64,000 bases of DNA from contig OZ024740.1 of the NCBI GenBank assembly GCA_964016885.1, positions 223,386,001 to 223,450,000 of the forward strand. The letters are read 5' to 3'. The first letter of the stretch is position 1; each line of letters starts with the position of its first letter. The notes under the pieces are model-generated. The model was not told the DNA's origin and searched no databases. It was given only the letters and a program-made list of their open reading frames with translations. Shown in pieces: positions 56,072 through 62,799 of this stretch. A program made the translations under genes and the position numbers. This DNA comes from Eledone cirrhosa. Lineage: Eukaryota.

Positions 56072-56745
56072 ATATTTAATGTATAATAAACAATACAATA
56101 TAATTACCTCATTAGCAGAGGTTTCCCGAATAATACGGATGCAAAAAACGTCTGCATTCGTTCGTCAATCAAGGCAATATAAACAGATATTTGAAAAATC
56201 CCAAGAAAGGGTAAAAAAGTTTAACGGACCAAAAAATAAATAAAAGTAATAATACAAGAAATGTATAAAAAATAAAGAAATCACAATACACATGCAGTTG
56301 TACATACACACAAATATGCATTTACACACATCCCCTTACTATATTTCTTTATTTTTATTTTTTATACATTTCTTGTATTATTACTTAGTATCGATAGAGG
56401 GTCGGACGCCATGCTTTCCAGCATAGTTACGTCCCTTTACGATCTGATTTCAAATCCCGCCGAGGTTGACTTTGCATTTCATCCTTATGGGGTCGATAAA
56501 ATAAAGTACCAGTAATGCACTGGGTATTGGCTGGCCTTGTGCCTAAAGTAGAAACAATTATTACTTTTATGTATTTTTTGGCCCGTTAAACTTTTTTAGC
56601 CTTTCTTGAGGAGATTTTTCAAATATCTCTCTTTAAATTTCCTTCATTGACGAACGAATGCGGACGTTTCTTGCATCCGTCTTATTCAGGAAACCTCTGG
56701 TAATAAGGTAACTATATTGAATTGTTTATTATACATTAAATATTT
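56072..56745. repeat. Imperfect fold-back palindrome (~200-bp arms) interrupted by a SINE
   Basis: 56072-56280 is the diverged reverse complement of 56343-56385 joined to 56560-56745. Confidence 0.88.
56386..56560 (+). mobile_element. Young SINE family A inserted in the arm of a palindrome
   Basis: Consensus match; TSD ATTATTACTT on both sides. Confidence 0.92.
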
Positions 56746-57309: not shown

Positions 57310-57327
57310 TATATATATATAATATTA
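56899..57327. repeat. AT-only satellite ((TA)n with TATAA/TATTA interruptions)
   Basis: Direct inspection. Confidence 0.97.
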
Positions 57328-57485
57328 TAGGGTCGGACGCCATGCTTTCCAGCATAGTTACGTCCCTTTACCATCTGAGTTCAAATCCCGCCGAGGTTGA
57401 CTTTGCCTTTCATCCTTACGGGGTCGATAAAATAAAGTACCAGTAATGCACTGGTAATTGCTGGCCTTGTGCCTAAAGTAGAAAC

Positions 57486-57490
<5 letters not shown>
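57328..57490 (+). mobile_element. Young SINE family A (5'-truncated) in (TA)n
   Basis: Near-identical to the other young copies (56386-56560, 59577-59767). Confidence 0.92.
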
Positions 57491-57522
<32 letters not shown>

Positions 57523-57794
57523 TATATATATATAATATTATATATATATATAATATATATAATATTATATATAATCAATTAAGTTAAAGTGTACATCTAC
57601 ATATGTATACAGAAGTATTAGTATGCATATAAATACACACATGTATACATATGTACATGTACTCAGCTTTTCACTAGACACTTTACAGTGAGTGTCAGCT
57701 AGTCTGTATGTAACCACACAGGCGGACCGGGTTTTAGAGTCATACGAGTTTTCAAGGAAACACATTTCCTCTATTCTCCAGAGGGCCAGACAGG

Positions 57795-57839
57795 AATATT
57801 GGACTAGTTTCGATGTTATTACATCTCATCAGCAATATT
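57795..57839 (-). ncRNA. Minimal type I hammerhead ribozyme (mirror copy)
   Basis: Exact reverse complement of 58560-58604. Confidence 0.92.
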
Positions 57840-58559
57840 TACCCATCTTCCGGCTTCTCTGGAGAATTGTAAAAGCACATATCGTTATATGCTTTTTCTA
57901 TGAAAATTAGTAGTGGGTAGACTAATTTGCATAGAACGTGAGTCATTGTACGCACCGGTTCAGCGGAAACGATAAAAACAAATAACGAAACGAAATTAAA
58001 TTTCGTTTCGCTTCTAACTCACTTTTGTATGACTGACACTTAAACAATTAAGTTAAAGTGTACATCTACATATGTATACGGAAGTATTAGTATGCATATA
58101 AATACACACATGTATACATATGTACATGTACTCAGCTTTTCACTAGACGCTTTACAGTGAGTGTCAGCTAGTCTGTATGTAACCACACAGGCGGACCGGG
58201 TTTTAGAGTCATACGAGTTTTCAAGGAAACACATTTACTCACTGTAAAGTGTCTAGTGAAAAGCTGAGTACATGTACATATGTATACATGTGTGTATTTA
58301 TATGCATACTAATACTTCCGTATACATATGTAGATGTACACTTTAACTTAATTGTTTAAGTGTCAGTCATACAAAAGTGAGTTAGAAGCGAAACGAAATT
58401 TAATTTCGTTTCGTTATTTGTTTTTATCGTTTCCGCTGAACCGGTGCGTACAATGACTCACGTTCTATGCAAATTAGTCTACCCACTACTAATTTTCATA
58501 GAAAAAGCATATAACGATATGTGCTTTTACAATTCTCCAGAGAAGCCGGAAGATGGGTA

Positions 58560-58604
58560 AATATTGCTGATGAGATGTAATAACATCGAAACTAGTCCAA
58601 TATT
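58560..58604 (+). ncRNA. Minimal type I hammerhead ribozyme
   Basis: AATATTG-CTGATGA-GATG-TAATAA-CATC-GAAAC-TA-GTC-CAATATT: stem I 7 bp, intact CUGAUGA and GAAA cores, stem II 4 bp, palindromic ACUAGU stem III, GUC cleavage triplet (cut after 58597). Confidence 0.92.
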
Positions 58605-58896
58605 CCTGTCTGGCCCTCTGGAGAATAGAGGAAATGTGTTTCCTTGAAAACTCGTATGACTCTAAAACCCGGTCCGCCTGTGTGGTTACATACAGACTAG
58701 CTGACACTCACTGTAAAGTGTCTAGTGAAAAGCTGAGTACATGTACATATGTATACATGTGTGTATTTATATGCATACTAATACTTCTGTATACATATGT
58801 AGATGTACACTTTAACTTAATTGATTAAGTGTCAGTCATACAAAAGTGAGTTAGAAGCGAAACGAAATTTAATTTCGTTTCGTTATTTGTTTTTAT

Positions 58897-59440
58897 TATA
58901 TATAATATTATATATATATATAATATTATATATATATATATAATATTATATATATATATAATATTATATATATATGATATTATATTTATATTATATATAT
59001 TTATATATTATATATATATTTATATATTATATATATTTATATATTATATATATATTTATATATTATTTATATATTATATATATATTTATATTATATATAT
59101 TTATATATTATATTATATATATTTATATATTATATATATATTATATTATATATATATTATATATTATATATATATTATATTATATATATATTATATTATA
59201 TATATATTATATTATATATATATAATATATATATATATTATATATATAATATATATATATATTATATATATAATATATATATATTATATATATAATATAT
59301 ATATATTATATATATAATATATATATATATAATATATATAATATATATATATATATAATATATATAATATATACTCTTTTACTCTTTTACCTGTTTCAGC
59401 CATCCGGCTGAGGCCATATATATATATATATTATATATAT

Positions 59441-59484
<44 letters not shown>

Positions 59485-59808
59485 TATATATATAATATTA
59501 TATATATATAATATTATATATATATAATATTATATATATATAATATTATATATATATATATAATATTATATATATATAATTGTTTCTACTTTAGGCACAA
59601 GGCCAGCAATTACCCAGAGCATTACTGGTACTTTATTTTATCGACCCCGTAAGGATGAAAGGCAAAGTCAACCTCGGCGGGATTTGAACTCAGATCGTAA
59701 AGGGACGTAACTATGCTGGAAAGCATGGCGTCCGACCCTCTACTGATACTGCCAATCCACCGCCCTTATTATATATTATATATATATAATATTATATATA
59801 TATAATAT

Positions 59809-59842
<34 letters not shown>

Positions 59843-60179
59843 ATATATATAATATATATATATATATGGCCTCAGCCGGATGGCTGAAACAGGTAAAAGA
59901 GTAAAAGAGTATATATTATATATATTATATATATATATATATTATATACATTATATATATATATATATTATATATATTATATATATATATATATATTATA
60001 TATATAATATATATATATTATATATATAATATATATATATTATATATATAATATATATATATATTATATATATAATATATATATATATTATATATATATA
60101 ATATAATATATATATAATATAATATATATATAATATAATATATATATATATAATATATATATATATATAAGATATATAT

Positions 60180-60313: not shown

Positions 60314-61788
60314 ATTCTGCCCAAATTACTGATCTTGTGGGCCTCTTTCTTCTTTTCAACTTAAATGCTTCCTTTCCCCACCTTAAAGGTGGTTTATATC
60401 GTGATGACTGTCTTCTTCTTTCCAACAACCTTATCCTCTCAGAAATAGAAAAGAACAAAAAGCTTATTAGAACTTTCCTTAAAGACTATTATAGTCTTCA
60501 TATTACTTTTGAAAACACAAGTAAAGTAGTTAATTTCCTAGATATAACTTTAGACTTAGCTACGGGTATCTACCAACCTTACCATAAACCCGACCAAAAC
60601 TTACATACACTCACAATCTAATCACCCTAAATCTATCCTTAAAAACCTTGCATATAATATATCACTTAGAATTTCTAACCTTTCGTCTAACCAAGACGTT
60701 TGATAAAAATGCGACCTTCTATAACGAAGCTCTAGATAGAAGTGGCCACAAAAATAGATTAGAATATATACCTTCTACTAAAAATACTATAAACATACAA
60801 CCTAATATTACCAACAAACACCAAATGAAAAGTATACACCTAAATGCCACCCACACTATACCCCAAAATACCAACTCTTCTAAAAAAAAGTATAGTAACT
60901 CTCAAAAAACTACTCATCATACAACTCTAATAAATGTTAATAATAAAACTCCTAATAAACAAGATAAAACACCTAAATCAATAAATCTAACTAAAAATGT
61001 GCGTGGTAGTGTCATTAACATTAATCCTCCTAGTTAACATCACGATGCAACCTATAAAAATAATAAACAACATAGAAACCGTAATAGACGAGTTACTTGG
61101 TATAATGCTCCATTTAATTTACAAATTAAGGATAATATTGCTAAAAAAATTTTTTATATCCTAGAGAAAAACTTCCCGCCAAACCACAAATACCATCAAA
61201 TCTTAAATAGATCAACAGTTAAATTCTCATACTCAACAACCAAAAACATAAAACAAAATATAAGTGCCTATAATGCATATAAATGTAAAAAAAAACATAA
61301 GTATACCACCAATACATCAAACTAACCATAATACCTCCTCAAATACAGAATTAACGAAAGGTTGTAACTGTAGAAACAAAGCAAACTGCCCATTAAAAGG
61401 AAATTGTCTTGTTAACAACATAGTTTATAAATGTAAAGTTAAAACTAAAGATTCTATTTGCTCATATATAGGAGCTACTTCTAACAATTTTAAGATAAGG
61501 TTTAATACCCACAAACATAGTTTTAAAAATGCCGCACTGGCTAATACAACATCTCTAGCAGAAAAAATTAATAGTTATAGAAATAAGAATATAGAATATG
61601 ATATGACCTGGAGTGTGCTCAAAAGAGCCACCCCTTATCAAAATAATAGAAATGAATGTAGATTATGTTCCCAAGAACTATTTGAAATAATGAAATCTAA
61701 GGATATCCTATTAAATAAGCGACAGGAATTAATTATATCGTGTAATCATAAACTGAGAAAAACATTTAAATATTATAAACCTAATTAA
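60314..61788 (+). mobile_element. 5'-truncated Penelope-like retroelement (RT C-terminus, thumb, Cys-rich linker, GIY-YIG endonuclease), frameshifted
   Basis: SAQITDLVG, GLYRDDCL, VNFLDITLDL, YQPYHKPD, SNHPKSILKN, VTWYNAPF...KNFPPNHKYHQILNRSTVKFSYS, CNCRNKANCPLKGNCL, IVYKC...YIGATSNNFKIRF..HK.SF, CRLC..E, LLNKRQE...CNH. Confidence 0.93.
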
Positions 61789-62620
61789 TATATATTTTAG
61801 AAATTAATATATAATTTAATTTAAATGTAGTTAACCTATAACTTTAATTTAATTAAAATTCTACTACAGATGAGATTAAAAAATATTGTGTAATCATAAA
61901 TTGTGAAAAACTATTAATATATACGTTGTAAATTAATTTATAGATTAATTTTAGTTTATTTAACCTTTTATTAAAATTCCTTTACAGATGAAATATAACA
62001 AAATATCGTGTAATCAATAACAGAGAAATATTTTTTAATATTATAAACCTAATTAATGTACAATTTAGAAATTTATTTATGAATTAATTTTAATTTAGTT
62101 AACCTATAATTTTAATTTAGTTAGCTTAAAATTAAAATTCTAATACAGATCGATTGCAGAACATCATGTAATCATAAACTGAGATAAACTTTTAAATATA
62201 TACCTAATTAATATATTCTTTACAATTAAATATATATATATATATATTAATTTTAATTTTTGTTAACCTATAATTATATTCTACTATAGATAAAATACAA
62301 AATCTGCTTTAATTATTATAAACCTAATTAACATATACTATAGAAATTAATATATAATTTTTAATTTAGTTAACCTATAATTTATATTCTACTACCGATG
62401 AAATACTTGATTTGGTTTTCCCTATTACTAAATTCATTTCCTAAAATTGATACCATAATGTTAATATTTTTAATTTAGTTATGCTATAATTAATACTCTA
62501 CTACTGTTTAACTTCAAAATTCCGCTTTAAATATTATAAACCTAAGTGGTATACACCTTAGAAATCAATATATTAACTATTTTTAATTTAGTTAACCTAT
62601 AATTAATAGTCTACTTATAT
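61741..62620 (+). repeat. Degenerate ~110-160-bp tandem array derived from the PLE ORF end / 3' UTR
   Basis: Recurrent TGTAATCATAAA (61741, 61888, 62008, 62167), TTATAAACCTAATTAA and TAGTTAACCTATAA motifs. Confidence 0.8.
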
Positions 62621-62799
62621 TAAAATGCATAATTTTGCCTTCTTTCTTATATTTCCTAATACTGAAACTACTATGTAAACACATATTATGATCTAAATGC
62701 AGATTAATATTCTATGTTCCTTGAAACCTATATTTACTATTTCCCACTAATAATTTTAATCCCCTCCCCCCCCTATATTTATTCGTATTTGTAAGCGTG

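Follow-up and report, generated by a model that had tools for sequence, protein, structure and literature searches.

Metazoan non-LTR retrozymes are non-coding elements that occur as tandem repeats with a GC content below 50%, one type I hammerhead ribozyme per unit, a self-paired predicted circle, and thousands of genomic copies (PMC7229834, PMC7761336, bioRxiv 10.64898/2026.07.22.740005). Their units measure 170 to 400 nt in one report (PMC7229834) and up to 972 bp in another (bioRxiv 10.64898/2026.07.22.740005), compared with 469 nt for the family described here, and their circles have been shown by northern blot in these accounts, whereas the present family is described here from DNA. Passages of the same reports propose mobilisation by Penelope-like elements (PLEs) and synthesis of multi-unit cDNA from a circular template (PMC7229834, PMC7761336, bioRxiv 10.64898/2026.07.22.740005), and editing comes up there only as something that might make the RNA heterogeneous (PMC7229834). 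Insertions of EN+ PLEs, as far as described in passages on their structure, combine a partial tandem with an inverted, 5'-truncated copy, a tail at one end only, AT-rich or (TA)n targets, short duplications (8 to 10 bp in PMC8557442 and PMC3846280), and two internal starts; in vitro, reverse transcription begins at two internal sites, both strands are extended, and the tail maps there (PMC11167929). The origin of the inverted ends is left open in passages of PMC3846280 and PMC8557442, the former suggesting that the head-to-head form arises when an antisense template primes itself. The minimal hammerheads (min-HHR) of PLEs lack helix III and loop 3, from which the canonical metazoan type I motif is distinguished in the relevant passage of PMC4209133. 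Among the papers listed by full-text literature searches, none dealt with retrozymes of cephalopods or with genomic copies of retrozymes that carry edits.

Judged by the DNA-testable features, all of which are found in the family, the element described here is a metazoan non-LTR retrozyme and thus of a known kind, sharing with the described examples a non-coding tandem organization, low GC content, one type I hammerhead per unit, and a self-paired predicted circle. Two-armed arrays with a fixed tail and edited genomic copies set it apart, as neither is described in the passages on known retrozymes. We consider it probable that this is a retrozyme family with Penelope-type ends whose arrays arose when a PLE-like reverse transcriptase repeatedly copied circular ribozyme RNA from two fixed priming sites. 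What is new is genomic evidence for PLE mobilisation and for multi-unit cDNA from circles, both of them hypotheses in the passages cited above (PMC7229834, PMC7761336, bioRxiv 10.64898/2026.07.22.740005).

The locus lies in a 64,000-nt stretch of Eledone cirrhosa DNA (the window, to which all positions refer). Self-comparison reveals a period of 469 nt (57572-57771 equals 58041-58240 at 98%, and 58237-58427 equals 58706-58896 at 99%), as the initial annotation had claimed, but the repeat is not a plain tandem: the whole locus is a head-to-head palindrome of two arms of about 1.4 units each, set in (TA)n. With unit positions named q1 to q469 (q1 being window 58358), the left arm on the minus strand (57572..58240) comprises 1.43 units (q271-469, then q1-469), and its outer end, fixed end 1 of the q464-469 class, adjoins the left (TA)n target flank (57489..57573). 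The right arm on the plus strand (58237..58896) comprises 1.41 units (q349-469, q1-469, and q1-70), and its outer end, fixed end 2 (q70), adjoins the right (TA)n target flank (58897..59373). Both arms meet head to head at 58237..58240 in a 4-nt overlap that represents microhomology. One complete unit on the plus strand (58358..58826; GC 36%), predicted by folding to form a branched circle, is followed by a 70-nt "tail" (58827..58896, plus strand) that is present at one outer end only and contains the 13-bp hairpin and U-rich run lying between the two fixed ends. These two arms are the informative feature of the locus and were overlooked in the first reading, as was the editing record. The absence of a credible open reading frame stands as annotated, since the longest stop-to-stop frames in 57572-58828 span 50 to 86 aa and a Pfam scan of three such unit frames returned one sub-threshold match and nothing else.

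Each arm carries one type I hammerhead, at 58551..58611 on the plus strand (with an extended stem I, a stem II of 5 bp, and a helix III that is short and palindromic; cleavage is predicted after 58597, i.e., q240/241) and at 57788..57848 on the minus strand of the left arm, so that the locus alone would release no monomer, just as the initial annotation had concluded. The Rfam scan suggested there as a check found model HH9 in both arms (58549-58619 on the plus and 57780-57850 on the minus strand) at 31.8 bits, with E-values of 7e-5 in 10 kb and 1.3e-6 in 181 nt; the motif matches the model end to end, though its score lies below the gathering score of 52. Together with the short palindromic helix III and the extended helix I, this end-to-end match identifies the motif as canonical metazoan type I and not as the min-HHR of PLEs, i.e., the type I hammerhead that had been annotated is there but is not "minimal". 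Six pairs in stems I and II show two-sided changes among 11 natural sequences (0/500 shuffles on cell count), most of which come from one deep split between the unit family and its sister family. Rfam miRNA matches were rejected as AT-repeat noise.

Folded as a circle, another check that had been suggested, the unit is strongly self-paired, with a minimum free energy of -156.3 kcal/mol and a z-score of -11.8 (60 shuffles; -8.0 for the reverse strand). The predicted structure contains stem I (58560-66/58598-604) with its extension (58551-57/58605-11) and a further helix (58532-42/58616-26), stem II (58574-78/58583-87), hairpins at 58387-415, 58464-502, and 58503-528, and a long-range pair (58365-72/58654-61). 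Every stem of the hairpin chain named previously is thereby recovered except for the long-range GCGAAACGA pair, which is absent from the computed circular fold, its 5' half being taken up by a local hairpin. According to the computation, the catalytic core is partly paired with palindromic loop III in the best fold, and opening it would cost 1.5 kcal/mol.

Exact matches in the assembly number 1,463 for the 31-nt hammerhead core and 6,165 for a 42-mer of the unit (reversed controls, 0 each), and a whole-unit search gave at least 364 matches with 38 of 695 candidates scored. The family thus has thousands of copies, mostly in back-to-back arrays, which answers the copy-number check of the initial annotation. 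Its view of a young, non-autonomous, hammerhead-bearing retroelement is supported. Subfamilies span 99% to about 86% identity, and a sister family of ~430-490 nt (62% identity) is alike in hairpins, hammerhead, and end positions. Four sets of loci were analyzed: 37 top-match loci, 33 stretches that take in, whatever their similarity, those of the first 100 core matches listed for contig 1 that the first set lacked (the unselected set), and two sets of 20 stretches each picked from searches for A>G variants. At least two hammerheads within one arm, a defining trait of retrozymes, are present in 12/29 unselected loci, while the window locus has one per arm. Four of seven sequencing runs were compared with the unit, over q1-368. 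Run X1 yielded no contig, and X2, of unspecified read kind, gave one 499-nt contig that makes a single circuit of the unit (depth 2.4), as tandem DNA would too; in run X3, which looks like genomic DNA, contigs exit the unit at 58427 (q70) into AT repeats. None of these runs was counted as evidence on expression.

The anatomy of the window locus is that of the family. Sixty two-armed insertions were counted, setting aside three secondary arrays, L100 (which is a segmental duplicate), and the two satellite-like arrays L097-099 and L140. In 53 of them, one arm has its outer end within q66-71 and the opposite arm within q463-469; by set, the counts are 25/28, 18/21 (the unselected set, in chromosome order), and 10/11. 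Each of the 25 one-armed loci likewise terminates at one or other fixed site, and among 20 additional loci, 11 have two arms and both fixed ends. Both outer ends are 3' ends of the sense strand, ~70 nt apart. The arms meet within 8 nt in 45/60 insertions and overlap or lie flush (gap 0) in 39/60, the largest inserts at the arm centre measuring 216 to 598 nt. Summed, the arms exceed the unit plus tail in 51/53 cases, meaning that template sequence was read twice, and both arms are longer than one unit in 23. The 598-nt insert (L132:4178-4775) is unrelated to the unit, has direct terminal repeats, and lies between the arms beside a hyper-edited tract.

At least one flank is TA-rich at 69/77 loci, in line with the annotated insertion into (TA)n. 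Five non-TA targets (L046, L073, L091, L096, and L131) show shared strings of 9 to 17 nt that overlap the element ends, so target duplications exceed 4 bp where visible, as is typical of retrozymes. No open reading frame is attached in the two-armed loci, the inner flanks of one-armed loci contain no PLE frame, and the combination of reverse transcriptase and GIY-YIG frame between repeats that marks an autonomous PLE was absent from the sampled loci. Within this sample the unit is therefore independent of any reading frame and is not the pseudo-LTR (pLTR) of a full-length PLE, which the initial annotation had named as a refuting outcome.

These insertions show the PLE-type "inverted copy plus tail" signature. 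As in EN+ PLEs, a partial tandem is joined to an inverted, 5'-truncated copy, the tail is one-sided, targets are rich in AT or made of (TA)n, duplications are short, and there are two internal starts, but the unit family has no reading frame, its tail is ~70 nt instead of 30 to 40, and both of its arms can span many units (PMC8557442, PMC3846280, PMC11167929, in the passages describing insertions). The non-autonomous PLEs of Chlamys (MRC1) are similar in being non-coding, multicopy, head-to-tail, and PLE-mobilised; unlike the unit, for which no such shared end was found, they have 3' sequence in common with an autonomous family and mostly lack canonical hammerheads according to a passage of PMC8557442. 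The unit family also differs from the products of L1 twin priming in that both of its priming sites are fixed and its arms overlap over several turns. In L1 twin priming, two target-primed cDNAs are joined by microhomology, with the second strand primed at variable sites and the arms not known to overlap. Retrotransposition of circular RNA reportedly also gives rise to circRNA-derived pseudogenes, which are similar to the unit family in this respect.

Some loci carry clusters of A>G changes that are confined to the ribozyme strand and identical in every unit and both arms. L077 of the unselected set has 11 A>G relative to its nearest relatives in all three units (30/30 cells), and a string with two of these changes was found in L077 and at no other locus searched. 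L123 has 17 sites (73/73 cells, both arms), again with a string found at no other locus searched. For L167 (9 sites, 140/140 cells, both arms; the runner-up among 40 scored candidates reaching 97%) and the similar L174, L173, and L135, polarity was set by the nearest sampled relative, which for L167 differs at 4 non-A>G sites as well. In L124, 55 A>G extend across exactly one turn, from q69 to q68. One unit of L132 has 33/76 As edited in q1-240 (the last at q233) and 0/72 in q241-469, with the preceding partial unit edited again; in this single case, where the boundary is bracketed between q233 and about q265, the edited tract is by its pattern one monomer as bounded by the predicted cut site. 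In L156, units of two types, distinguished by five A/G sites and two C/T sites, take turns throughout the plus arm and in the inner part of the minus arm, whereas their order is scrambled in the outer minus arm; as the pattern reads, this locus is a dimer read repeatedly, with DNA-level duplication afterwards.

Edited loci are rare and were mostly located by targeted search, with L123, L124, and L132 found by requiring one A>G and allowing further ones. Searches of this kind gave 19 and 12 matches, 8 and 6 of them with further A>G, while matched T>C searches gave 12 and 7 matches of which none had a second T>C. Derived locus-fixed changes outside the search windows of the edit-selected loci number 15 A>G and 0 T>C; at unselected loci there are 11 A>G (six from L077) versus 3 T>C, or 6 versus 2 outside the windows (p 0.29). 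A T>C excess among unit-private changes (25 versus 13, p 0.052) was considered as a polymerase-error signature and dropped. Edited As are preceded by U or A in 71/83 cases (p 7e-5), with no preference for a 3' G (p 0.47). ADAR favours As with such 5' neighbours. The four hyper-edited loci have only 3 to 20 sites in common, and this partial overlap indicates that the patterns are molecule-specific. Unit position q265 (window 58622) differs from pass to pass, being T, G, or C, within 7/65 loci (Bonferroni p about 1e-3), and could reflect an adenosine modification that the reverse transcriptase misreads.

The edits serve as a barcode of a single RNA molecule that reports the template strand, repeated reading, and the use of the same molecule for both arms. 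Since editing differs between molecules and its pattern repeats from the innermost to the outermost unit of both arms, a single molecule must have been read over and over, beginning at two sites; A>G on the ribozyme strand in both arms points to sense RNA as the template of both, and not to the antisense RNA proposed in a passage of PMC3846280. The edits thus bear on the origin of PLE inverted ends. A closed circle best fits these patterns as the simplest template for repeated reading. We accordingly favour, with reasonable though not high confidence, a reading in which this genome directly preserves the life cycle of the retrozyme in fossil form: individual circles edited by ADAR (monomers and ligated dimers) would have been read for up to ~15 turns by a PLE enzyme twin-primed on one sense molecule, edits would have become heritable and founded subfamilies (recurrent A>G at q110/114/115, 157, 206, and 245), the cut site would be marked in vivo, and the head-to-head form of PLEs would derive from sense RNA instead of an antisense template.

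In such a cycle, arrays with at least two hammerheads would be transcribed and their RNA cut at q240/241, probably as dimers given the short and palindromic helix III, and the cut RNA would be closed into monomer and sometimes dimer circles, some of which ADAR would edit. A PLE would then nick both strands of an AT-rich target, each target 3' end would prime cDNA on the same sense RNA with starts ~70 nt apart, and both cDNAs would extend beyond one unit length before their ends are joined by microhomology; unequal exchange may later lengthen some arrays at the DNA level. If this is true, A-to-I edits are heritable and the ribozyme cut site is marked in vivo, and the data suggest that RNA edits can pass into the inherited DNA of this animal. 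They also provide exact points for an in vitro PLE assay, namely the cut at q240/241 and starts at q465 and q70.

It seems unlikely that the same PLE machinery instead used an uncleaved linear multimer transcribed from a source array, with units made identical by DNA duplication or conversion after insertion. DNA-level duplication is clear in L059, L097-099, L140, the outer part of L156, and L168, higher-order duplications being visible in several long arrays, and it could homogenise units inside one arm; uncleaved RNA was the main substrate of an anole PLE in vitro according to a passage of PMC11167929, and 1/9 Xenopus dimers showed cleavage in a passage of bioRxiv 10.64898/2026.07.22.740005. 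The window locus, which has no A>G cluster, is compatible with a two-unit template as well: 431C>T and 467T>A are common to the outer units of both arms and absent from the inner ones, and an assembly string search found no second occurrence of the q467 junction string. Such sharing is impossible from a monomer circle and needs a dimer template or arm-to-arm conversion. However, conversion between arms is not general, as unit-private changes are shared in register at 3 sites in 2 loci compared with 96 unshared in 50 loci. Moreover, the same patterns of 11 to 17 edits are present in the innermost and outermost units, and in both arms in L123, with strings found at no other locus searched; the calculated chance that independent editing repeats 17 sites is ~1e-6 even with only 25 editable As. 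The assembly may nevertheless lack a source locus in which the edits are fixed.

Very unlikely, in our view, is a cleaved monomer without covalent closure that is kept together by its fold and on which the enzyme jumps from the 5' end to the 3' end of the same or another monomer. The change from unedited to edited sequence at about the cut site in L132 and the switches of subfamily inside single arrays (L056 and L158) would fit such jumps, but ligated dimers or trimers account for L132 and L156 equally well. Only 2 of 529 cut-site crossings have an indel, and arm 5' ends at q236-250 number 4/174 versus 5.6 expected, without any pile-up, which argues that the enzyme neither halts nor stumbles there. 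Finally, it is most improbable, and already largely refuted within the sample, that the unit is no more than a pLTR belonging to some ordinary autonomous PLE, or else a PLE-derived satellite spread as DNA: end anatomy does match PLE termini, two arrays are satellite-like (L097-099 with >55 units, and L140), and a passage of bioRxiv 10.64898/2026.07.22.740005 traces vertebrate retrozymes back to pLTRs and suggests that tandems grow locally, but two-armed loci whose arms meet within 8 nt in 45/60 cases have no space for a reading frame, no PLE frame lies in the inner flanks of one-armed loci, and the restriction of A>G clusters to one strand speaks for an RNA stage.

Returning to copying of circles by a PLE-like enzyme, the initial annotation had suggested mobilisation by the PLE copy 1.4 kb downstream of the unit (60318-61788 within 60318-62790, plus strand). 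This copy is 5'-truncated and frameshifted, and its family is large and young, with frames of 828 aa (64,345 candidates, 150 scored; open frames of 722 to 866 aa in 12 copies). While the family is indeed young, its flanks have nothing in common with the unit beyond AT-rich low-complexity sequence, and we rejected it as a partner. In the 3' region of the copy, several repeats rich in AT look like hammerhead cores that have decayed. A second PLE family (L145; G000:C28:42.00-42.06 Mb) has a 1,218-aa frame, a 4,146-bp tandem unit, and many 100%-identical copies, with two fixed ends 45 to 58 nt apart in (TA)n and the same age class and anatomy as the unit family. It shares no sequence with the unit either, so that of the two families searched for terminal sequence shared with the unit (828-aa and 1,218-aa), neither showed any, but it is currently amplifying and would suit a biochemical PLE assay well. 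We take the neighbour to be "Hydra-like" and the 1,218-aa family to be "Neptune-like"; these tentative labels follow sequence motifs, as Pfam left the neighbour's protein unnamed and gave a weak RVT_1 match alone for the other. A head-to-head junction with the end of another PLE at L064 was not counted, as the PLE arm is 96-98% like its best kin and hence older than the retrozyme arm, and a supposed chimera at L076 turned out to be an inverted copy of flanking target DNA.

Several arrays switch subfamily in register (L056:3068-6006, L158:1670-7371, L138, L081, and L052), L056 passing from A to B to sister family C, and related arrays are often nested in one (TA)n, which suggests template switching among retrozyme RNAs. 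The youngest subfamily (L129-130, L139/125/126, L127, and L128), with a 468-nt unit and A>G at q110, 114, and 115, forms two-armed arrays of up to ~25 units on several contigs with almost no differences, and at L134 the length of an A-run differs from unit to unit. The satellite-like unit arrays (from G000:C1:95.62 Mb onwards for L097-099, and L140) show higher-order repeats and DNA-level growth. Another hammerhead-like tandem repeat with a 310-nt period and at least 13 units (L041:1-4150) adjoins a copy of the unit family. Within the window, three SINE-like repeat copies (56387-56561, 57326-57491, and 59576-59750), two of them inverted around the unit locus, and a second palindrome in TA-rich DNA with short repeat ends (59165-60148) lie close to the element.
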